The notes beneath the pieces were generated by a model. It ran no database searches. It saw only the letters and a program-made list of their open reading frames with translations, and was not told the DNA's origin. A stretch of DNA of 13,776 bases from Candidatus Altiarchaeota archaeon (GTDB taxonomy: Archaea > Altiarchaeota > Altiarchaeia > IMC4 > SCGC-AAA252-I15). Below, in pieces: positions 3,415 through 13,132 of the stretch (position 1 is the first letter of the stretch; each line of letters opens with the position of its first letter). The stretch covers positions 1-13,776 of the forward strand of contig JAPKXP010000112.1 of assembly GCA_026394745.1 (NCBI GenBank). Reading direction: 5' to 3'. The translations under genes were made by a program, and so were the position numbers.

Positions 3415-3468
3415 ATAAAAAAGGGGGGTATATAAAACAATGTGCAATAATAAAACACACTATTGCAC
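3415..3468 (-). terminator. Hairpin GTGCAATA-N11-TATTGCAC overlapping the serpin stop codon, followed on the minus strand by oligo-T tracts (TTGTTTTATATACCCCCCTTTTTT)
   Basis: The perfect 8-bp arms sit at 3443-3450 and 3461-3468, spanning the serpin TAG at 3460-3462. Downstream on the transcript come a T4 and a T6 run plus a C6 homopolymer (G6 on the plus strand at 3423-3428). This is consistent with archaeal oligo-U termination. Confidence 0.4.
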
Positions 3469-4821
3469 TGGATTCTCCAACCTGCCCATGAACAATATGT
3501 TCCCGCTCTTCCTATCTTGTATTACGAACACGAACGGATGGTCTGCATTGAAAACAGTCTGCGGGCGCACTGAAGTGAGGGCGACAATAACCGCAGTAGC
3601 CGCCGCAGCCTCAGTACCCTCCTCGTTCACGTCCACGTAAGCCTTGTGTATCACGTCGCTCACGTAAAGATTCCTCGAGCCGTCCATGCCGGAAAAGTCT
3701 GCGGCGCCCGGGTCAAAGGCAGAGCGCATGCCAAGCGCAGAAAGCTTCTGCGGCAGGGAGTACTGCGTCTCAAGCCTGAACTTAGGGATGTACACGTTAA
3801 CCTGCCCGGAATGTAGCATACTCCTGACAGCCTGAATCTTTTCCAACGTAAGTGCATCCTCCATATCCGATATTGAACCCTTAGGCAGGAGGATAAGCAT
3901 GGAAGTCTCGTTGCCGTCGTACAAAAGCTCCAACGCCTGAAGCTCGTCAGTCTCGGCGTAGTTGAAGACCGCATCCTTCCCAGTACGCCTCATCATCTCG
4001 GCCTTCACGGTCTTTCCGGGGGAGACGGTGAAGTCCTGCACGCTAGTCTCGTCGGCGTTAAACTGCTTAAGCCAAGTGCCCTTAAAGTATATCGCGTTGG
4101 TGAGAACTAGGCGCGTCATCTGATTCAACGCGCCGGCGGGAATCAAGTCCCGAATCTTGTCGTTAGTCTTGTCCTCCACCCACGAGTTAATCGTCTTCCT
4201 CGAACCCTCAGCGTCGCCGACGTAGTCCAAGGCTGACACCTCGCCGCCGTAATATTCCCTGACCACCTGCACGTACTCGCCCCGGAAGAGATAATCCTTC
4301 TGAGGCCACAGCGCGTTCGCGGTGTAAAGCTGGTATCCGGACTTTACGGAATTGATTCCCAAAAAAAGAGACTTAAAGCTTTCCCTACGCGCCGCATCGT
4401 CAGCCGGCAGGTGCAGGACTGCCATCATCTCATCGGCGGTCCCTCCGCGCGCGCCCTCGAAAGTCATCGCCAAAGCCGCGGAAACGCTGAACGGGGAGAA
4501 GAAAACGTTCCCGCCGCCAAGCTTCTTGTACAGTTCGAGCGCGAAACGGTTGTTAGCCTCTACGACGCTCAAGCCCTCGTCGCACCTTGGAGGGCTGGCG
4601 CACCCGCACTCGTCCACGACGCCGGGAATTATGGTGCCGTTAACGCACCAGCCGGGCGCGGGCGATGAGAGCATAGGACACTCGCCGCAGCCGCCTCCCG
4701 GAGGCAGCGTAGGCATGGGTAGAGTAGATGAAACTGGGGGAGATGGACTCCATCCTGAAAAAACAAATCCTAGCACGCACAAACCCAAAACAGCCAACAC
4801 GACGACAAAACGCAAGTCCAT
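3460..4821 (-). CDS. Serpin (inhibitory type) with N-terminal membrane anchor, Pro-rich linker and a 6-Cys module preceding the serpin core
   Basis: The C-terminal 'FNADHPFVFVI' is a perfect fit to the PROSITE serpin signature. The hinge 'EEGTEAAAATA' (P17 E, P15 G, P14 T, P12-P9 AAAA) indicates an inhibitory serpin. Helix-A-like 'EANNRFALELYKKL' is present. The N-terminus is MDLRFVVVLAVLGLCVLGFVF (anchor), then SPSPPVSSTLPMPTLPP, then CGECPMLSSPAPGWCVNGTIIPGVVDECGCASPPRCDE. Confidence 0.9.
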   Translation of the reverse strand: MDLRFVVVLAVLGLCVLGFVFSGWSPSPPVSSTLPMPTLPPGGGCGECPMLSSPAPGWCVNGTIIPGVVDECGCASPPRCDEGLSVVEANNRFALELYKKLGGGNVFFSPFSVSAALAMTFEGARGGTADEMMAVLHLPADDAARRESFKSLFLGINSVKSGYQLYTANALWPQKDYLFRGEYVQVVREYYGGEVSALDYVGDAEGSRKTINSWVEDKTNDKIRDLIPAGALNQMTRLVLTNAIYFKGTWLKQFNADETSVQDFTVSPGKTVKAEMMRRTGKDAVFNYAETDELQALELLYDGNETSMLILLPKGSISDMEDALTLEKIQAVRSMLHSGQVNVYIPKFRLETQYSLPQKLSALGMRSAFDPGAADFSGMDGSRNLYVSDVIHKAYVDVNEEGTEAAAATAVIVALTSVRPQTVFNADHPFVFVIQDRKSGNILFMGRLENPVQ

Positions 4822-4885: not shown

Positions 4886-6985
4886 TTATGATTTGATTAT
4901 TGCGGCGGCTAGTGCCGTTATTAGTATTGATATTGCTGGGAAGCAGCATGTTGTTGGTGTTTGGCCTTGTGTTTTTGTGTCTGGGCCGAGGTCCGTGTTC
5001 CATTGCAATGTTGTGTTTTCTGGCGTGTTGTAGGGTTGGTCTTTGTGCGTTCCAGTGGGTTTTAGGTTGAATGTGTGGGTGTCGAAGTAGTTTTGGTTGT
5101 CTGGCGTGGAGTAGTATTTTTGCCGGTATTCCTTGGTCGTTATTGAATATGTTTGCTGCGCCGTGTAGTCTTGCGAGTCGGGTTTGACTGTTAGGGTTGC
5201 GTCGACGTCGTCTGGAAGGGGCATGAGGTAGAGTAGTCCCTGCCGTACTTCAGTGTCGTACTCGTAGTCTTTGCCGTCCGCAGGGTTGTTGTAGTGTACG
5301 GAGACCTTGTAGTAGTGGACCTCTGTGTCAGGTACTTTTATGAACGCCTTGGGTATGTAGCCTGCGGTCTCCCGGAGGGGTCTTTCGTAGTTGGATGCCT
5401 TGCCGATTTTCTCGCCGGCGTTGTATGCCATTTGAGTGCGGTTGTCCGGAACGCCGTAGTCCACGAAGAATTCTCCGACTTCGTACATGCTGTTGTTTGC
5501 CGGCGGCGGGCTGTCCCTGTAAGGCTCGAATGCGTCGCGAGCGTGATTTCCTTCGCCTGTGTCAGCGAAGAATCCGTGCTCTATGAAGATTTTGTCTATG
5601 GCGTCCGCCTTGCCGGGGAATGCCGTCCTGAATGCGGTGTAGTATTCGTAGAAGTTCTTCCTTTTCACTTTTAGTATCGGCCACATCTGGCTTAGGTTGA
5701 GCGTCACCGTGTCGCCTTGGTCGTTGTTTTTGTCGTAGAGGTCCCATAGGACGCCGCATACGGCAAACTCTTCTGCGGCGCCGGTGCTGTCCCAGCTGCG
5801 GTAGTTGTTTTCCATGCTGCCGAAGCTGGCGTAGTGCTCAGGGTCGCGGTCGCCTCGGTAGTCTGAGATTGCCAGGGTCATGAATTCGGCGAAGCCTTCG
5901 ACGAAGGAGTCGCCGGTAGAAGGGTTGATGTACCCTGCGTGGTTTCGGCTGCCAGCCAGGGTGAATCCGTCAGGCCAGCCGCCGTAGGACGCGTACATGA
6001 GGTGGTGTGCAAACTCGTGGTATTCCCTGTTTTTCGGCTTGTTTGTTGAGCCGTAGGCGCTGTCGGAGAGTCCTATCGCCACCGAGGCGTCATTTGAGCT
6101 GTAGTATGTCTTTTGCCCGCTGGGGTCGATCCTCCTGTCTCCGATGACCGCCTTGACTGGGAGGTTGTAGTCTATGTTAGCCTTGAGATTTTTTATTGAA
6201 AAGTCCACTGCCTCGTGCATGTGGCGGTATATGGCTGCTATGTTCTCCACCTCAGATAGTTTTACGGTGGATTCTATTTTAGTGTCGTTGACTGTCAAGG
6301 TTTTGACTCCTGCGGGAGCATTAATCTTCAGGTCTATGTTTTGCGCAAGGTCCTGCTCCTCCCTGAGCTTGAACTCCTTTTTGAATGACTCGGGAGTCGA
6401 CACCCCCATGAGGCCGCCGCCCAGGGATATTCCGTGATTGACTGTGAAATAGTTTTTTTCGTTCCTGAAGTAGGAGAACTCGGCTGTTAGAGTAATCTTC
6501 ACGGGGTTGGTCTTGTTGTAGTGGAATTTTCCTAGTTGTATGACGTAGCTCCCGTTCTCGTTCGTTTCGTTGTATTGGCTGCTCAACGGCATGTCGGCAG
6601 TGACTGTCATGTATGGCAGGGGATTCCCGTGGCCGTCGGTTATCCTCCCTTTCAGAGCCCACTCTTTAGGTAGTGTCGTTGTGGTTGTAGTCGAGGTTGA
6701 TGTCGTCGAAACTTCGCCTGGGCAGGGTATGTTGGGGCGGACGCAGTAGTGCATGCTCGGGCATAGGGGGTCGTCCGGCGGTTTGACGCATTCCTTAGTC
6801 AGTTCGACGTTCTTTTTACAGTTGACGTTGTCGTACATGCACACGTAATCGACGCACTTGCCTACGCTTTCCTCCCAGCTGCGGCCGGGTGGACACTGCT
6901 GCCATCCGAGGGTTGTGTTTGAAAGAGACGCTATGAGAAGTAGGATAATCGCTATTTTAGTGCCTTGCTTTAGGCGAGCCATCAT
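4886..6985 (-). CDS. Large secreted/surface HExxH protein (putative zinc metalloprotease): signal peptide, Cys-rich module, Thr-rich linker, carboxypeptidase-regulatory-like beta-sandwich, HEFAHH domain, C-terminal 'CC-hydrophobic-KS' anchor
   Basis: N-terminus MMARLKQGTKIAIILLLIASLS. About 9 Cys lie in residues 30-90. The linker is STTSTSTTTTTT. 'GRITDGHGNPLPYMTVTA...NENGSYVIQL' is a CarboxypepD_reg-like motif. 'NREYHEFAHHLMYASYGGWPDGF' contains HExxH. There are many N-x-S/T sequons. The C-terminus is ...TPTTCCFPAISILITALAAAIIKS*. TATA-like AAATATAA lies about 20-28 nt upstream. Confidence 0.8.
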   Translation of the reverse strand: MMARLKQGTKIAIILLLIASLSNTTLGWQQCPPGRSWEESVGKCVDYVCMYDNVNCKKNVELTKECVKPPDDPLCPSMHYCVRPNIPCPGEVSTTSTSTTTTTTLPKEWALKGRITDGHGNPLPYMTVTADMPLSSQYNETNENGSYVIQLGKFHYNKTNPVKITLTAEFSYFRNEKNYFTVNHGISLGGGLMGVSTPESFKKEFKLREEQDLAQNIDLKINAPAGVKTLTVNDTKIESTVKLSEVENIAAIYRHMHEAVDFSIKNLKANIDYNLPVKAVIGDRRIDPSGQKTYYSSNDASVAIGLSDSAYGSTNKPKNREYHEFAHHLMYASYGGWPDGFTLAGSRNHAGYINPSTGDSFVEGFAEFMTLAISDYRGDRDPEHYASFGSMENNYRSWDSTGAAEEFAVCGVLWDLYDKNNDQGDTVTLNLSQMWPILKVKRKNFYEYYTAFRTAFPGKADAIDKIFIEHGFFADTGEGNHARDAFEPYRDSPPPANNSMYEVGEFFVDYGVPDNRTQMAYNAGEKIGKASNYERPLRETAGYIPKAFIKVPDTEVHYYKVSVHYNNPADGKDYEYDTEVRQGLLYLMPLPDDVDATLTVKPDSQDYTAQQTYSITTKEYRQKYYSTPDNQNYFDTHTFNLKPTGTHKDQPYNTPENTTLQWNTDLGPDTKTQGQTPTTCCFPAISILITALAAAIIKS

Positions 6986-7029: not shown

Positions 7030-8103
7030 TTAGAAGCATTCGGCTTTTCCTGTGAGGCAAAGCTGCGTCATCTTTTGTATGTCGGCGAGCCACTTGTCCG
7101 CTATTTCTTTTGCCTTCTTTTCAATCTTCCTGTCGCCCACTACCTGGATGTCCGCGCAGAGCGGCTGGTCGATGGGCTTCCCGATCTGGCTCATCAGCCG
7201 CACGTACACCTGCTCCGCTCCTTCGTTTGCTATGTCTCGGGCACCGTTCGCGCGGTTTCCTCTGCCTACGCTTCCGTCGTCTCCCATCTCGCCGCTCGTA
7301 CCAGTAACAGTCAGGAATACTGAGCCTGCGCGGTAGTCGTCTGCGGTGTTTATGTCGACGACGACTTTTTCGTCTGTTATGCCTGCGATGCTGTCGAGTA
7401 TAAGCTTCTTTTCCTCTGCCATGACAACCTCGTACTCCTTGATGTTCTTGATGTGGCGTGAAACCATCGCGTTAGCGACAGTTAAAGTAATCTTGTTCTT
7501 ATATCTGACGCCCATCACCTTCACGTCTTCGCCGCTGCCCCGAATCTTCTTCTTCATCACGCCGTTGATGTACTTCTCGGTCTTGTAGACGAGCTCCTCA
7601 GTCAGTGAGAACGGAGCGTAGCTTACGCCGAATGACGTGTCATTGGACTTGGGCATTCCAGTACGACCGAACACATCCCTTAGGTCTGTTGAGCCTAGAC
7701 CAATCTTCTGGTCTACAGTCACGCCTGAAGAAACGTCTATGTGCGGGAAATTCTGTCTTAAGTAATCCCTGGCAGCCTTAATCGCGATGTCGCCGACTGG
7801 AATAAATTCGTCATCGACTTCAGTCGTTGCGCGGCCGCTCAAGAGGATGTAGATTGGCTTGATGACGCTTCCGGAACCGAATAATGGACTGCTCCTGCCG
7901 CCGACGAGCTCCACCTGGTCGGTGTTGTGGTGCATGATGTGGCCGTAGCGCTTCACGTACTCGTTGGAGAGTGCGCGGCTTACTGCTTCAGCCAGGCCGT
8001 CGCAGATGCTGTCTGGGTGTCCGATACCCTTACGTTCCACAAGCTCGACGTCTTGTTTCGCCACGGGAACGGAGTCTACGAATTCGACGGTGATGTTTCT
8101 CAT
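7030..8103 (-). CDS. mat: Archaeal-type S-adenosylmethionine synthetase (methionine adenosyltransferase)
   Basis: N-terminal 'VERKGIGHPDSICDGLAEAVSRAL...HHNTDQVELVGG' and 'LTVTGTSGEMGDDGSVGRGNRANG' are diagnostic of the archaeal MAT family and align by eye with M. jannaschii MAT. ATG at 8103-8101. Confidence 0.9.
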   Translation of the reverse strand: MRNITVEFVDSVPVAKQDVELVERKGIGHPDSICDGLAEAVSRALSNEYVKRYGHIMHHNTDQVELVGGRSSPLFGSGSVIKPIYILLSGRATTEVDDEFIPVGDIAIKAARDYLRQNFPHIDVSSGVTVDQKIGLGSTDLRDVFGRTGMPKSNDTSFGVSYAPFSLTEELVYKTEKYINGVMKKKIRGSGEDVKVMGVRYKNKITLTVANAMVSRHIKNIKEYEVVMAEEKKLILDSIAGITDEKVVVDINTADDYRAGSVFLTVTGTSGEMGDDGSVGRGNRANGARDIANEGAEQVYVRLMSQIGKPIDQPLCADIQVVGDRKIEKKAKEIADKWLADIQKMTQLCLTGKAECF

Positions 8104-8131: not shown

Positions 8132-9067
8132 TCATTTAGCGTCGCGTATTCCGTCAGTCAAAACCTCGAAAACGCATTCTGCGTCTGGCATGCTGGGGCT
8201 GTCTATCATTTCGGCAATCCTCTTGCTTGCCTTGCCCTTCTTGAGGTAGACTCTGAAGGTGGAGTGGTGGCCTACGATGTGGCCGCCTACGGGGGTTGTG
8301 GGGTCGCCGAACATGATGTCCGGGCGTGCCATGACTTGGTTTGTCACCATGACTGCTGCGTTGTGCAGGTCCGCTATCTTCCGCTGGAGGGTGTGCATGT
8401 GGCGGTTCAGTTTTTGTTGTCTTGAGGCTAGCGTGCCCCTGCCCGTGTATTCGGCACGGAAGTGCGCGATTAGCGAATCTACTATGACTAGTTTTATGTT
8501 CTTCTCCTGCATTAGCTCTGATGCTTTTTCTGCGAGGAGCATCTGGTGGTCGCTGTTGTATGCCCTTGCGACTTGGATGTTTCCTAGAACCTCTTTAGGG
8601 TCGAGTTTCAGGGCTTTTGACATCTGTTGGATTCTTTCGGGGCGGAACGTGTTTTCGGTGTCGATGTATATTGCGCCGGCTTCCAGGCCGCCTTTATCCT
8701 TGGGTAGTTGAACGTTGACTGCGAGTTGGTGTGCGACTTGGGTTTTTCCTGAGCCGAATTTACCGAACATCTCGGTTATGGCTTGGGTTTCTATGCCGCC
8801 GCCGAATAGTTTGTCGAACTCCTTGCTGCCGGTGGAGAGTTTTCCTATTTGCTCTCTTTTTGCTAGTACTTCCAGGCCGGATTCGAAGCCCATTTGTAGT
8901 GAGTCTCTTGCTGCGTTGATTATTTTTTTGGCGCTGGCTTCGCCGAGGCCGACGTCAACGAGCTCGCCGACTGCGGCTGCGGCTATCGCCTCGATGCTTA
9001 CGTATCCTGCTTCCCTGAGTTTTTCGGCGATGGTTTCGCCTACTCCAGGTAGTTCTTCTAGGTCCAT
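8132..9067 (-). CDS. radA: DNA repair and recombination protein RadA
   Basis: The N-terminal helix-hairpin-helix '[20 protein letters not shown]' is followed by a RecA fold with Walker A 'GKFGSGKTQ' and '[15 protein letters not shown]'. 311 aa, no intein. A TTTTTAAC box lies about -30 upstream. Confidence 0.95.
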
Positions 9068-9160
9068 TTTGGTACGTAATTAATGAGAGTTTTCGTTAAA
9101 AAGCCAGCCCACAGAGTGCGTTGTAAAAGTGTTCGCTTTGAACTTTGACGCTTTAGTTAC

Positions 9161-11113
9161 TCAGTCGACTATCTTCTCCATCTTTTTTATTATTTCGGAG
9201 CCGTCGACTAGGGAGTATTTGAGGACGTCGATTAGGGTTTTCGCAGTCCTTATTATTATTTTGCCTTCGTATTTTTTCTCTAGGAGGACGTCCTTCATGT
9301 TGCTTTCCGGGATTATGACTTCTTTCATGCCTGCTTCGGCTGCGGCTTCTATTTTCTGGGTTACGCCGCCGACCGGCAGGACTTCGCCTCTGACTGTGAG
9401 CGAGCCGGTCATTGCTACTTCCTGTTTTACGCCCACGCCTTCGATGGCGGATATGACTGCGACTGCGACGCTCACTGATGCGGAGTCACCTTCCACTCCC
9501 TCGTAGGTCTGGAGGAATTGTATGTGTATGTCGTGCTTGTAGATGTCTTTCCCGCTTACGTTCTTGAACAACGCGGAGACGTTGGTGACCGCCTCTTTGG
9601 CAATCTCCCCGAGTTTTCCTGTCGCGTAGATTCTAGCGCTCTCCTTGCTTTGGGCTGGAGCGACTTCGGCGACGATTGGTAGGACCGTTCCGCCTTCGCC
9701 GAATACTGCAAGGCCGTTGACGCGCCCCACCTTCTCTCCGCTCGTTATGAGTATGTTGTATTCCTTCTTGCGTTCTAGTATTACGTCGCCGACCTGCTGC
9801 TCCATTGTCCTTGCTGACTTCTTGCCTTCGAGAACATCCTCGGTCGTCACGTACTTGTGCTTCTTTTCGCTGGCTATGTCGCCTGAAGCGCGGATGAGCC
9901 CTCCAATCTCCCTGAACCGGAGGGTGATTTTGTCGCGCATGCCAGCCTTCCTTTTAGCTTCCTTGATTATCTCTTCCACTGCCGTTTTTGTGAAGTGCGG
10001 GATTTTACCGTCCTTCCTGACTTCCTGAGCGACGAACTGCACGAACTTCTTCCGGTTTTCGTCTGTGTCGTCTATGTTCTCTTTCATGAACACCTCGTAG
10101 CCGTAGCCCCTGATTCTGGAGCGTAGTGCGGGGTGCATGTTCTCTACGACGTGCACGTTGCCTGCCGCCACGAGGATGAAGTCGCATGGAACCGGGTCTG
10201 TTATGACCATCGCGCCTGAGCTCATCTCGCTCCTTCCGGTTATTGAAAGCTGCTTCTCCTGCATCGCAGTCAAAAGGTCGATTTGCGAGTTCCCGAGCGC
10301 CCCGACCTCGTCGATGAACAAGACGCCCTTGTTGGCCTTGTTGATTAGCCCGGCGACGACGCGAAGGTGCGCTGGGGTTCCGAGTCCGCCGGTCTGAAGC
10401 GGGTCGTGCTTTACGTCGCCGAGGAGCGCGCCTGCGTGGGCGCCTGTGCCGTCGTAGAACGGAGCCATCTTTTTCCTCTCGGCGTTGTCGACTATGACCC
10501 TGGGAATCAACGTCTTTGTTGAGCCCATCATGCCGCGGATGTTGACTCCGAACAGCAGGAAGAATATTATGCCGAATCCCATCCAAGCCGCTATGACTAT
10601 GCCATCTTTTATCAGCCCGAACATGTAGGCCGTAAGCGGGAGAACGAAGAACAGTAGCAGCATCGTCAGGACTCTGCCTCCGCCGTCTCTCCCGCCGTCC
10701 ACATCCTTCTCGCGCTCTGCCTTGATTATCTTCCTGCCTTCGCCTGCTGGGAAGACTTTTATCTTCGGGTTGTTCTCGTCCTCGAGGTTTGGTATGGACA
10801 GGATGTCGACGAGCGCCTCGCAGGGCAGTAGTTCGGCCATGGCGTTCGCGAGCATGCTCTTCCCGGTTCCGGGGTCGCCGATGAGGAGTATGTGCCTCCT
10901 CTGTTTGGCGGCCTTGCGTATGGTGTCGACCGCCTTCTCCTGGCCGATGACCTGGTCGATCAGCTTTTCAGGGACTTTGATGTTCTCAGTAGTCTCGAAG
11001 TCACTCCATTTGCTCATGGAGACTGCATCGATAAGCTTTTCAGCGCTTGATGCTGCCTTGACGGGCTCTACCCTGGCGTCCTGCTTGGACTGTCTTCCCT
11101 TTTTCTCCTGCAT
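9161..11113 (-). CDS. lonB: Archaeal membrane-anchored Lon protease (LonB): AAA+ module with inserted TM hairpin and a Ser-Lys protease domain
   Basis: Walker A '[10 protein letters not shown]'. The TM insertion is '[43 protein letters not shown]'. Catalytic 'GDSASVSVA' and '[11 protein letters not shown]' are present. The ORF-track start at 11119 is GTG; the first ATG is at 11113-11111 (MQEKKGRQ...). Confidence 0.95.
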
Positions 11114-11115
11114 TT

Positions 11116-12102
11116 TCACTGTTTGCCGACGCTTTCAGGCAGCTGGTATATCATCTGGTTTGATGGTAGCGCTACGAAGTTCGTGTTCGGGTTCGTGTAG
11201 AGCTCCTCCATTATCTGAAGTTGCTTGAAGCTGTATGCGTTAGGGTTCGCCTTGATTGTGTCTGCTACCGTCTTCAGCGCCTCGGCCTCGGCTTTAGCTA
11301 CTATGATTTTGGATTCAGCCTCCCCTCTGGCAATCGCAATCTTGGCCTTAGCCTCGCCTTCTGCTATCGCGACCTGCTGGTTTGCGATTCCCTCGCCCTG
11401 AATCTTCAGCCGCTCGGCCTCCTTCTGCGTAAGCTCCAGTTCGTACTGTTTCTTGAATGCCTGCTGTTCCATGGCCTGCTTGTCTTCTATCGCGCTGGCT
11501 ATGTCGGTTGGCATTGCGACTTCCCGGACTAGCACGTCCTCGATTATGAATCCGTCCTTCTCGAACAGCGGCTTCAGCTTCACGAACGACTCCTGCTGGA
11601 GCCTTTCCCTGCCTGGGCCGTATATGTCTGTCACGGACATGTTGCCTGTGACTTCCCTTATGACGGCGCGTATCTCAGGAATCAAAGTGCCTTTACGGTA
11701 TTCTGTGGTAAGCTCCTGCACGATTGACGGCGCGGCTGATGCCCTCGTCTTGTAGAGCACTGAAACGTCGGAAGTGACGATAAGGCCCTCCTTTGTCGGG
11801 GCTGATATCGCTATGTCGTCCCCGCCGGGGTGCAGGTTTATCGTGTCTCTCGCAGTCTGCACTAGGTAGACTGACTGGACTAATGGTAGCTTGAAGCTCC
11901 ATCCGGGATTGCGGACTGAATTCATGCTGATTCCACCCCATGCCGTGTAGTCTACGCCTACAAATCCTGCTGGTATGATAACGAGTATGTCGCCGACTAC
12001 CGATAAGACGACGATAAGGAGGATGAAACCGACGAACAATCCTACCCCGGACTTGAACAAAGACGAAAACATGCCGCTGACATCATCGTATTTGGTTGCC
12101 AT
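11116..12102 (-). CDS. SPFH/band-7 (stomatin/prohibitin-like) membrane protein
   Basis: N-terminal TM '[18 protein letters not shown]' is followed by an SPFH domain and a C-terminal coiled-coil Ala/Glu/Lys-rich region ([33 protein letters not shown]). ATG at 12102. SD GGAGGG lies 7 nt upstream and a TATA-like TCTATATAAC at about -23 to -30. Confidence 0.9.
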
Positions 12103-12157
12103 AAGAGACCCTCCGTATTTTAGTTATATAGATTACTATTACGGCGCTTGCTTAAAT
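12103..12157 (-). promoter_or_regulatory. Promoter for the SPFH-lonB pair (TATA TCTATATAAC plus SD GGAGGG)
   Basis: The 55-nt spacer after the kae1 stop reads, on the minus strand, ...GTAATAGTAATCTATATAACTAAAATACGGAGGGTCTCTT-ATG. Confidence 0.4.
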
Positions 12158-13132
12158 TCACCAGACGACTTCAATGTCGTCGGTCCTCTGACTCTGCTTT
12201 ACGACAGTATCTTCGATTCCCATCCGGACTCCCGCATCGTGCATTTTAAGGCCGAGCATCGCTATCATCACGCCGTTGTCGCCCATGTACTTCGCTGGAA
12301 AGCTGAATTTGGCGTTGTGTTCTTCGGCGACTAAACGTACCATCTCCTGCAGGCGCTTGTTGTTTCCGACGCCGCCTGTGAGAATCACTTCCTTTGCCTT
12401 CACGTGAGCTAGAGCTCGCTCAGTCACCTCGCAGAGCATCGCAAAGGAGATCTCCTGTATGCTGTAGCAGAGGTCTTCGAGCGGAACGCCCTTCTCGAAC
12501 TTCTGCAATGCCGCCGTGAGCATTCCGGAAAACGACAGGTCAGTGCCCTTGACGACGTAAGGAAGTTCAATGAAGTTTTTTCCGTTCCTCGCGAGCTCCT
12601 CAATCTTGGGTCCTGCTGGATGCGAAAGGCCGGCTTCTCTCCCGAACTTGTCGAGCATGTTGCCTATGCCGACGTCGAGCGTCTCGCCGAAGACCCTGTA
12701 TCTGCCGTCCTTCAGCTTTATGACTTGGCTGTTTGCGCCGCTGACGTAGAGCACTAGCGGGTCCTTGAATCCGGAGAGCACGTTGCCTACTTCGATATGT
12801 GCTATGCAGTGGTTGACTCCGATAACCGGTTTATGGTAGGCTAGCGAGAGTGTTCTTGCAGCGGTCGCTATAGTCCTAAGGCACGGGCCGAGGCCAGGCC
12901 CCTGGCTGAACGCGATTAGGTCTACGTCCTCCATTGTCAGTTTAGCCTGCTCTAGCGCCGCATCCAATGCAGGCCTCATGTTGTCGACCATGTGCTGGGA
13001 CGAGTCCCGCGGGTGGATTCCGCCCTTCTTTGGAGCATAGCTCTTCCGGACGTCAGCTAGGACATTGAATTTTCCGTCATTCAAACCTACGCCGAGCGTG
13101 TGGGCTGTGCCCTCAAGTCCTAATACAATCAT
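12158..13132 (-). CDS. kae1: tRNA N6-adenosine threonylcarbamoyltransferase Kae1 (KEOPS catalytic subunit), not fused to Bud32
   Basis: 'MIVLGLEGTAHTLGVGL...', 'GIHPRD', 'FSQGPGLGPCLR', 'VIGVNHCIAHIE' and 'LTGGVGNNKRLQEM' are the Kae1/TsaD family ASKHA motifs. 324 aa. Confidence 0.95.
   Translation of the reverse strand: MIVLGLEGTAHTLGVGLNDGKFNVLADVRKSYAPKKGGIHPRDSSQHMVDNMRPALDAALEQAKLTMEDVDLIAFSQGPGLGPCLRTIATAARTLSLAYHKPVIGVNHCIAHIEVGNVLSGFKDPLVLYVSGANSQVIKLKDGRYRVFGETLDVGIGNMLDKFGREAGLSHPAGPKIEELARNGKNFIELPYVVKGTDLSFSGMLTAALQKFEKGVPLEDLCYSIQEISFAMLCEVTERALAHVKAKEVILTGGVGNNKRLQEMVRLVAEEHNAKFSFPAKYMGDNGVMIAMLGLKMHDAGVRMGIEDTVVKQSQRTDDIEVVW

Follow-up and report, generated by a model that had tools for sequence, protein, structure and literature searches.

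Archaea lack FtsH, and LonB is their only membrane-bound ATP-dependent protease. A conserved operon joining lonB to a gene of the SPFH type would therefore have been a direct lead on how LonB is regulated, or on what SPFH proteins do where FtsH is missing. Such a pair of genes lies on contig JAPKXP010000112.1 of a Candidatus Altiarchaeota archaeon (the window, by which we mean the whole stretch of 13,776 nt that was analysed), and an earlier note on this DNA had read it as a "hard-wired" SPFH-LonB operon pointing to a regulatory complex like those of bacterial and mitochondrial SPFH proteins with their AAA proteases. Here, we asked whether the adjacency reflects a conserved design or a local gene order. 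The genes concerned are as follows:

12158..13132, minus strand: kae1/tsaD (tRNA t6A synthesis, 324 aa; Pfam TsaD 9.8e-80)
11116..12102, minus strand: SPFH (Band 7) gene, prohibitin/HflKC-like, 328 aa (Pfam Band_7 5.1e-30)
11111..11119, minus strand: SPFH-lonB junction, GTGAAAATG (read from the sequence)
9161..11113 (9161-11119 if started at GTG), minus strand: lonB, membrane ATP-dependent Lon protease, 650 aa (TIGR00764, Pfam, PDB)
8132..9067, minus strand: radA (Pfam Rad51 6e-93), downstream member of the kae1...lonB-radA-MAT block

The two membrane proteins

Both gene identities given in the earlier note stand up to profile searches. The SPFH protein belongs to the SPFH / Band 7 superfamily, its residues 42-228 scoring 105.3 bits on Band_7 (PF01145; gathering score 23.6, E 5.1e-30). 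An N-terminal TM helix spans residues 20-43 (nt 12045-11974), and the AF2 model (pLDDT 82.4) consists of a helix (6-39), the SPFH domain (40-196) and a second helix of ~87 residues (199-285). In a phmmer search against PDB sequences the best match is prohibitin-2 (PHB2, 5.8e-10), with HflC at 2.9e-6, while the top Foldseek matches of the model are PHB2 (1.9e-17), PHB1 and HflC; stomatins rank below PHB/HflC, the P. horikoshii stomatin core 3BK6 standing no higher than rank 49 among the Foldseek matches. The modelled architecture (TM helix, SPFH domain, long helix) is of the prohibitin/HflKC type, and close relatives carry the NCBI name "prohibitin family protein". The protein lies far under the HflK and HflC equivalog cut-offs (TIGR01933, TIGR01932, NF008259), none of which it reaches, with 44.9 bits against the HflK model (cut-off 159.4), and 24.9 (134.4) and 25.4 (427) against those of HflC. 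Charged residues around the TM helix are biased across 14 homologues (34 K/R and 15 D/E on the N-terminal flank, 0 K/R and 8 D/E on the C-terminal flank), and by the positive-inside rule we infer an N-in/C-out (type II) topology with a predicted extracytoplasmic SPFH domain.

The SPFH gene has no NfeD family gene beside it, its neighbours being Kae1 and LonB, and none was detected by Pfam in the neighbourhoods of its relatives, in keeping with the contrast that the earlier note drew with the classic NfeD partner of archaeal SPFH genes. The stomatin-NfeD pair, by comparison, is widely conserved (229/353 SPFH1 members; PMC2636767). Like the window, the stomatin-NfeD operon of Pyrococcus horikoshii (PH1511/PH1510) pairs an archaeal SPFH gene, in operon-like fashion, with the gene of a membrane serine protease. 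In the window, however, the partner is LonB rather than an NfeD/ClpP-like protease, the SPFH protein is prohibitin-like, and the pair is not widely conserved. The protein may also be compared with the stand-alone prokaryotic prohibitin homologues that Hinderhofer et al. 2009 (PMC2636767) class as SPFH4 or "p-prohibitins", with which it shares the prohibitin-like sequence, the lack of an NfeD partner and a variable gene context; that survey reports no Lon neighbour for any SPFH subfamily.

The neighbouring protein is, by its sequence, a canonical archaeal LonB. It scores 841.8 bits against the NCBIfam LonB model TIGR00764 (cut-off 516.6), carries the Pfam domains Lon_C and LonB_AAA-LID, and matches PDB 3K1J, the LonB of Thermococcus onnurineus, at 5.7e-215. 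It matches canonical LonB over the full length, with the Walker A (79-86) and Walker B (264-269) motifs, the GDSAS serine motif (542-546), the lysine motif (582-591) and, within the AAA+ module, the TM hairpin insertion (148-168 / KDG / 172-190; nt 10672-10544). Its one notable difference is a K/E-rich N-terminal extension of ~35 residues, common to other Altiarchaeota. The external loop of the hairpin amounts to three residues, KDG, and both an extracytoplasmic domain and an SPFH-interacting motif are absent.

Distribution of the SPFH-lonB adjacency

One adjacency does not lend itself to a formal chance statistic, and what counts is whether it is conserved. Across Altiarchaeota, the region has the order endA(-) / kae1 / [variable slot] / lonB / radA / SAM synthetase (MAT), in which kae1, the co-directional gene upstream of the SPFH gene in the window, serves as the anchor of the synteny block and stands upstream of lonB in L021, L024, L025, L026 and L027. 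The SAM synthetase gene of the window's contig has an odd 33-codon in-frame deletion. Among ~15 SPFH relatives with usable flanks, the SPFH gene lies beside lonB only in the sister lineage of the window's (L003/L021), and tblastn of LonB against the fetched SPFH loci finds LonB in the same two only. The adjacency is absent from L001, L002, L004, L005, L022, L023, L028 and the P0003 contig, and likewise from L008-L010, L015, L024-L027 and L050-L052.

The SPFH gene occurs in at least three contexts other than lonB in the phylum: with NUDIX(-)/MCM(-) downstream and CorA, H+-PPase or EPSP synthase upstream (L001, L002, the P0003 contig and L023), beside unknown genes and an ABC transporter (L022), and beside LPG_synthase_TM (L028). 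Conversely, kae1 and lonB can be separated by a 39-nt gap (L026), by a 146-aa ORF, with the SPFH gene ~18 kb off (L025), or by three unknown soluble proteins (L027); in L024, kae1 and lonB stand together, and the SPFH gene lies ~8-10 kb off on the other strand. We considered whether the slot genes of L025 and L027 could be membrane or protease partners as well, and rejected this, their products being soluble and without a Pfam match. As to reach, many of the 18 loci that an SPFH alignment recovered from metagenomes ended before any neighbouring gene, and a single SPFH protein used as query against genome contigs recovered two relatives only, where an alignment query would go further.

No LonB was found within 6 kb of the more distant SPFH relatives (L008-L010, L015; 37-52% identity). 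In other archaeal orders, no Band_7 gene was found within 4 kb of lonB in Pyrococcus sp. NA2, Geoglobus acetivorans or a Thermoplasmatota MAG. The sample from outside Altiarchaeota is small, at three LonB loci and a few SPFH loci of DPANN-like type, and rare independent SPFH-lonB adjacencies may exist beyond the phylum. A LonB alignment used as query against viral contigs found 19 Lon-like genes of 30-36% identity with no SPFH gene near; these are not orthologues, and we set them aside as uninformative.

Conservation of the adjacency across archaeal genomes, which the earlier note had put forward as a check on its reading, is thus missing in the other Altiarchaeota examined and in the loci from three other orders. 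The word "hard-wired" does not suit a pairing confined to the window lineage and its sister, a distribution that the note had itself set against its proposal. Such a restricted pairing is what an ordinary local rearrangement would leave, and it is weak evidence for a scaffold-protease machine. We therefore consider it probable that two housekeeping membrane-protein genes were joined by a lineage-specific rearrangement, and that their co-expression is recent and local rather than a conserved design. The window proteins and those of L021 are sisters in NJ trees of both LonB and SPFH (identity between the two lineages is 86% for LonB and 71-75% for SPFH), so that a single event is enough to account for the adjacency: the SPFH gene would have moved into the kae1-lonB slot in the common ancestor of the two lineages, a direction that we infer. 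Recent horizontal acquisition of the gene was considered and set aside, there being no GC or skew anomaly; composition is uniform along the contig, including the SPFH gene. Close packing in itself argues little. The better conserved order kae1-lonB-radA-MAT links functionally unrelated genes (radA has no functional relation to lonB, and in L027 the RadA and MAT genes overlap by 20 nt), and a shared function accordingly does not follow, in this phylum, from genes of one direction being closely packed.

Three considerations weigh against rearrangement as the whole account. The SPFH-lonB pair has persisted since the window and sister lineages diverged. In the window the genes stayed together while the spacer between them was lost, as selection for co-expression might bring about, provided that the difference arose by loss in the window lineage rather than by gain in the sister lineage. 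Finally, both proteins are part of membrane protein quality control, and partnerships between SPFH proteins and AAA proteases are recurrent, so that a functional link would come as no surprise. As a one-off rearrangement in a narrow lineage of Altiarchaeota, the adjacency itself offers at most a weak hypothesis.

A possible SPFH-LonB complex

The chief alternative is that a ring or cage of the SPFH protein in the cytoplasmic membrane confines LonB hexamers and adjusts their activity, in the way of HflK/C with FtsH and of prohibitins with m-AAA; the joining of the genes would then reflect selection for stoichiometric co-expression, and the partnership would exist genetically unlinked in other archaea. 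The resemblance to HflK/C-FtsH and prohibitin-m-AAA goes this far: a single-pass SPFH protein with a long C-terminal helix, predicted to be N-in as in HflKC and PHB, is encoded beside a membrane hexameric AAA+ protease. Several observations fit this alternative: the SPFH protein comes closest to prohibitins and HflC both by sequence and by modelled fold, no NfeD partner adjoins it, the gap is 2 nt with no clear lonB promoter, and the sister lineage retains the adjacency. So does the view, taken in reviews (PMC4343526) and echoed in the earlier note, that in archaea LonB probably takes the functional place of FtsH.

The same comparison exposes the differences. The window has one SPFH gene instead of a heteromeric pair, its protease is a Ser-Lys Lon instead of a Zn-metalloprotease, and the gene linkage is not conserved. 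Binding in both PHB-m-AAA and HflKC-FtsH needs the extracytoplasmic (IMS) domain of the protease and an SPFH-interacting motif (SIM), and removing that domain abolishes SPFH binding (PMC13376388), whereas LonB of the window has neither and exposes KDG only. The ATPase and protease domains of LonB, moreover, lie on the membrane face opposite the one predicted for the SPFH domain. Given the three-residue loop and the opposite faces, any contact between the two proteins would be TM-TM or passive confinement, and the mechanism of the analogous complexes that the earlier note invoked is not transferable as stated.

Further evidence runs the same way. The adjacency is missing in every other Altiarchaeota examined and in three other orders, and the spacer of the sister lineage holds separate promoter-like and terminator-like elements. 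No SPFH-LonB fusion was found by hmmsearch of an SPFH profile against 150 LonB representatives (50% clusters, E<=10), and no Band_7 domain by Pfam in 10 N-terminally extended LonB-like representatives. In the literature searched, no link between LonB and SPFH, stomatin or prohibitin proteins in archaea was found. Taken together, we hold a dedicated SPFH-LonB complex to be unlikely. A bolder form would make prohibitin-type SPFH proteins the missing archaeal scaffold of LonB, fencing its hexamers in microdomains by TM-TM contacts or passive enclosure and dispensing with extracytoplasmic docking, with the joined genes revealing a partnership unlinked elsewhere; this we regard as somewhat less likely still. 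The SPFH-lonB pair is a convenient natural co-expressed construct in which SPFH-LonB interaction can be tested.

Expression signals and the start of lonB

Under the preferred reading, a local rearrangement, co-expression of the two genes would be a consequence of their junction. On the minus strand, the SPFH stop TGA (11118-11116) and the lonB ATG (11113-11111) are separated by 2 nt, or the genes overlap if lonB starts at GTG 11119-11117; the ORFs and the junction sequence confirm this geometry as first described, and both reading frames are intact across it. No tRNA or Rfam match was found in the window when RNA elements at the junction were considered. Promoters and terminators were searched for with a simple scan for AT-rich octamers and oligo-T runs, as sigma-70 scanners do not model archaeal promoters, and the candidates are:

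12158-12151, minus strand: second candidate box AATTTAAG, kae1-SPFH spacer; putative promoter
12103..12157, minus strand: kae1-SPFH spacer, 55 nt, free of oligo-T runs (read from the sequence, with AT-rich 8-mer and T-run scan)
12131-12124, minus strand: TATA-like CTATATAA, kae1-SPFH spacer; putative promoter
12114-12110, minus strand: SD-like GGAGG, kae1-SPFH spacer
11147..11154, minus strand: ATGATATA, weak candidate internal promoter at -41 from the lonB ATG
9098..9102, minus strand: T5 run, the first that the sense strand shows past the kae1 start; candidate archaeal terminator

The earlier note had given a TATA box and an SD to the SPFH gene only. Both elements exist, and lonB has neither a strong TATA-like box in the octamer scan nor an SD before ATG 11113; as parts of one transcript, however, the two fit poorly. 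The centre of CTATATAA lies ~25 nt before the SPFH ATG, a spacing that predicts a near-leaderless mRNA from which the SD would be excluded, while a transcript from AATTTAAG would contain GGAGG. The T5 run at 9098-9102 falls in the 93-nt lonB-radA spacer, within TATA-like CTTTTTAAC upstream of radA. With no spacer between the genes, no oligo-T before 9102 and no strong TATA before lonB, co-transcription of SPFH and lonB with translational coupling is the likely and most economical reading.

The sister lineage helps to place this arrangement. In L003 and L021, 80 nt separate the SPFH gene from lonB, including a T-run and a TATA-like box of lonB's own, and ~72 nt of the spacer present in L003 are absent from the window junction. 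Therefore, lonB in the window is most likely read from upstream promoters, which would be that of the SPFH gene, that of kae1 or both, with termination-reinitiation at UGAAAAUG as its most likely mode of translation. SPFH and LonB are thus probably co-expressed in this organism, which says little about complex formation.

Alternatively, the genes could be adjacent and uncoupled, lonB being transcribed from the internal promoter ATGATATA (11154-11147) or translated from Met33 (ATG 11017). The sole AT-rich octamer between -60 and -15 of the lonB ATG, ATGATATA resembles the putative SAM synthetase TATA box ATGATATAAA at -32; the missing SD before ATG 11113 would also suit this account, and NCBI annotates LonB as a 618-aa protein (P0060) from Met33, which leaves a 98-nt gap to the SPFH gene. 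Yet ATGATATA encodes MIY of SNQMIYQLP, a conserved motif of the SPFH protein, and the same bases occur in L003 ~120 nt before lonB, so that coding explains them; an internal promoter would, in any case, supplement read-through from upstream rather than exclude it. As for Met33, neither an SD nor a TATA-like element precedes ATG 11017. LonB orthologs conserve a motif, (L/I)D(V/A)xx(M/L)KxW, that spans positions upstream of and including Met33, and LIDAVS of the window fits it. Many of them have no Met at the equivalent position (QLKTW in the sister lineage; ELKKW, DLKSW or TAKKW in others), which means that translation must start further upstream. The only in-frame starts upstream of the motif in the window are ATG 11113 and GTG 11119, and by this comparison of sequences the true start is one of these, not Met33. 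We accordingly judge uncoupled expression to be rather improbable.

An assembly artefact, in which a chimeric metagenomic contig joins unrelated regions, is highly improbable. For it speak the 13.8-kb length of this fragment of a MAG and the SAM synthetase deletion that it bears; against it, the order kae1-SPFH-lonB-radA-MAT recurs in the independent L021 (ENA assembly) and L003 (JGI contig) from other samples, and intact frames and uniform composition cross the junction.

A point of annotation also follows from the conserved motif, in that PGAP starts of LonB in Altiarchaeota (617-619 aa) are probably ~30 residues too short.

Genomic distribution of the SPFH–lonB adjacency

In this 13,776-bp contig from a Candidatus Altiarchaeota MAG, the SPFH/Band-7 gene belongs to a co-directional minus-strand array:

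12158-13132, minus strand: kae1/tsaD (ORF and Pfam reading)
11116-12102, minus strand: SPFH/Band-7 gene (Pfam Band_7, 5.1e-30)
9161-11113, minus strand: lonB (TIGR00764, 841.8 bits)
8132-9067, minus strand: radA (ORF and Pfam reading)
7030-8103, minus strand: archaeal SAM synthetase gene, MAT (ORF and Pfam reading)
4886-6985, minus strand: unknown gene, 699 aa (sub-threshold CarboxypepD_reg match only)
3460-4821, minus strand: full-length serpin gene, 453 aa (Pfam, 2.8e-115)

At the loci encoding the closest genomic SPFH relatives, L001 (73% identity) and L002 (70%), both Altiarchaeota, NUDIX and MCM come after SPFH, both encoded on the other strand, and CorA or H+-PPase lies upstream. This context recurs at L023 and on the contig of the database protein P0003; L022 has different neighbours, and at L028, whose SPFH is sister to the pair of the window and P0004 in the tree, the gene comes after an LPG-synthase-like gene. 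A tblastn search with LonB against all retrieved SPFH loci, L004, L005 and the remoter L007-L015 among them, placed LonB near SPFH only in L003/L021, the sister lineage, where L021 has the window order endA(-)...kae1-SPFH-lonB-radA-MAT.

The neighbourhood of lonB is arranged differently elsewhere. At L026, which encodes the next-closest LonB (81% identity), lonB directly follows kae1 with a 39-nt gap and the slot between them is empty. It is also empty in L024 (the L001 contig, kae1-lonB-radA-MAT), where SPFH lies ~8-10 kb off on the other strand, while in L025 (the L002 contig) it holds an unrelated 146-aa ORF, with SPFH ~18 kb off. In L027, where radA and MAT overlap, the slot is filled by genes for three uncharacterised soluble proteins of 250, 728 and 300 aa; no occupant at L025 or L027 has a Pfam match. 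Only the window and L021 hold SPFH there. Because slot content differs among these loci, the conserved feature is a block of functionally unrelated genes, kae1-(variable slot)-lonB-radA-MAT, of which SPFH is one of several occupants. Judged from L024-L027, L021 and the window, what is inserted between kae1 and lonB varies among Altiarchaeota.

Outside the phylum, no Band_7 gene was found within 4 kb of lonB in Pyrococcus sp. NA2, Geoglobus acetivorans or a Thermoplasmatota MAG, a small sample of three loci, and none of the best 150 LonB representatives of 50%-identity clusters carries an SPFH domain. Our literature search found LonB together with SPFH in archaea nowhere; SPFH proteins go unmentioned in two reviews of archaeal membrane proteases, and Hinderhofer et al. 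(PMC2636767), who surveyed SPFH operons in prokaryotes, never name Lon. The earlier note had proposed a hard-wired SPFH–LonB operon, to be given up if the adjacency proved confined to close relatives. Conservation across archaea was seen neither in the other Altiarchaeota loci examined nor in the three outside LonB loci, and the confinement seen here, to the window and L003/L021, is the outcome named there as refuting that proposal.

We therefore consider it probable that a neutral rearrangement explains the adjacency: two ordinary genes would have been joined by a recent, lineage-restricted event. The window and L021 are sisters in neighbour-joining trees of both LonB and SPFH, so that a single translocation of SPFH in their common ancestor would suffice; GC content across the SPFH gene is unremarkable.

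Type of SPFH protein and the protease analogy

A true functional module of SPFH and LonB is an unlikely alternative. For the SPFH protein, PDB sequence matches rank prohibitin-2 first (5.8e-10), followed by a second prohibitin entry (6.8e-08), HflC, PHB1, QmcA and erlin-2; its scores on the equivalog models for HflK and HflC fall far under their cut-offs. In the AlphaFold2 model (28 homologues, pLDDT 82.4) the SPFH domain (40-196) lies between a TM helix and a helix of ~87 residues, and the model's top Foldseek matches are PHB2, PHB1, HflC and erlins. Summed over 14 homologues, the 15 residues ahead of the TM helix contain 34 K/R and 15 D/E, against 0 and 8 in the 15 residues after it, a charge bias that predicts an N-in/C-out topology, as in HflK/C and prohibitins. 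Ranking, architecture and predicted topology together support, in line with the earlier note, a prohibitin/HflKC-like protein rather than the stomatin-NfeD type; no NfeD gene adjoins SPFH in the window or in any relative's neighbourhood inspected.

LonB itself scores 841.8 bits against a cut-off of 516.6 for the LonB equivalog TIGR00764 and matches the T. onnurineus LonB structure 3K1J at 5.7e-215. In HflKC-FtsH and PHB-m-AAA complexes, the SPFH cage holds the protease by a domain situated in the periplasm or intermembrane space, together with an SPFH-interacting motif, and deletion of that domain abolishes binding (PMC13376388). The window LonB, in contrast, has a TM hairpin (residues 148-168 and 172-190) that is K/R-rich on both flanks and joined by the linker KDG, so that essentially none of it would be exposed on the outer face, the predicted side of the SPFH domain. 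The analogy thus meets a structural obstacle, and a partnership would need another mode, for example TM-TM contacts or passive confinement within a fenced patch of membrane, which is possible but unsupported.

The junction and its expression

On the minus strand the junction reads GTGAAAATG, with GTG at 11119-11117, TGA at 11118-11116 and ATG at 11113-11111, as previously described. The NCBI annotation of LonB (P0060, 618 aa) starts at Met33 (ATG 11017), which would widen the gap from 2 to 98 nt. Among 65 LonB orthologues whose N-termini we compared, non-PGAP gene calls mostly carry a 20-45-residue N-terminal extension closing with the conserved motif (L/I)D(V/A)xx(M/L)KxW(D/S)(D/E)F(K/E)TT, and many have no Met at the Met33 position (QLKTW in the sister lineage; ELKKW, DLKSW, DIKNW, TAKKW or SEAKSW elsewhere), so that the conserved residues upstream of Met33 are translated. 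Since no in-frame start codon other than ATG 11113 and GTG 11119 precedes this motif in the window, the tight junction is real. PGAP calls of 617-619 aa in Altiarchaeota, begun at a conserved internal Met, are probably N-terminally truncated, ortholog comparison indicating a true start ~20-45 residues upstream.

Putative promoters and terminators were read by inspection and by a scan for AT-rich octamers and T runs. Most window genes have an AT-rich box beginning ~22-36 nt ahead of the ATG, as is usual for archaeal mRNAs that are leaderless or nearly so. These boxes, with two further elements ahead of the SPFH gene, are:

minus strand: AT-rich box of kae1, TTTATAGA (sequence scan)
12158-12151, minus strand: alternative TATA-like box ahead of the SPFH gene, AATTTAAG (sequence scan)
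12131-12124, minus strand: AT-rich box of the SPFH gene, CTATATAA (sequence scan)
12114-12110, minus strand: SD-like GGAGG ahead of the SPFH gene (sequence reading)
minus strand: AT-rich box of radA, CTTTTTAAC (sequence scan)
minus strand: AT-rich box of MAT, GATATAAA (sequence scan)
minus strand: AT-rich box of the serpin gene, TTTTTTAAC (sequence scan)

The TATA box and SD previously ascribed to the SPFH gene are both present, but their joint use is not supported: CTATATAA is centred ~25 nt ahead of the ATG, so its transcript would have a 5' end close to the ATG and lack GGAGG. The SD would be meaningful only with read-through from kae1 or initiation at AATTTAAG. The spacing suggests two expression modes: transcription from the SPFH gene's own promoter into a leaderless mRNA, and translation that uses the SD when transcripts read through from kae1.

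Expression of lonB independently of SPFH is rather improbable. The sole AT-rich octamer in the interval scanned ahead of lonB, -60 to -15, is ATGATATA at -41 (11154-11147); it encodes MIY within the conserved C-terminal SPFH motif SNQMIYQLP, and is equally found in the sister lineage, there ~120 nt from lonB. From the start of kae1 through the end of lonB the sense strand has no run of at least five T; such a run first occurs at 9102-9098, within the lonB-radA spacer. In L021, SPFH stop and lonB ATG are 80 nt apart; this spacer contains TTCTGTTTGTTTTTAAG, then an AT-rich stretch, with a TTTTTAAG box at -35 to -28 relative to the lonB ATG, plausibly a terminator and a separate lonB promoter. 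For the window, the simplest reading remains the coupled single transcript proposed earlier, possibly including kae1, with reinitiation at UGAAAAUG, and SPFH and LonB are likely co-expressed. That the junction is an assembly artefact is scarcely credible, because the kae1-SPFH-lonB order is common to independent assemblies.

Other genes of the window and LonB homologues

Multi-pass membrane proteins with an HExxH-like HEAGHG/HEAGHI motif are encoded just upstream of kae1 in L021 (2146-2979) and L025 (4371-5147 and 5698-6474). They have no Pfam hit on record and may be membrane metalloproteases. The window has no such genes; endA abuts kae1 there. Its SAM synthetase (7030-8103, minus strand) has 357 aa versus ~390: compared with the L024 orthologue, 33 internal residues between GRGNRANG and ARDI are missing in frame. 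The deletion could be real, and possibly inactivating, or an assembly error. The serpin gene (3460-4821, minus strand) lies downstream of the 699-aa gene (4886-6985, minus strand); archaeal serpins are uncommon.

LonB-like AAA+/Lon_C proteins with 30-36% identity to that of the window are encoded on nineteen viral-classed IMG/VR contigs (L031-L049), several of them exceeding 100 kb, and none has an SPFH gene nearby. Some LonB homologues (P0105, P0166, P0180, P0185-P0189) reach ~1,050-1,160 aa and align to the query as two separate segments; P0105 and P0166 have a PF14890 hit, which we take to be an intein-splicing domain, and in several clusters the LonB AAA+ module bears insertions.
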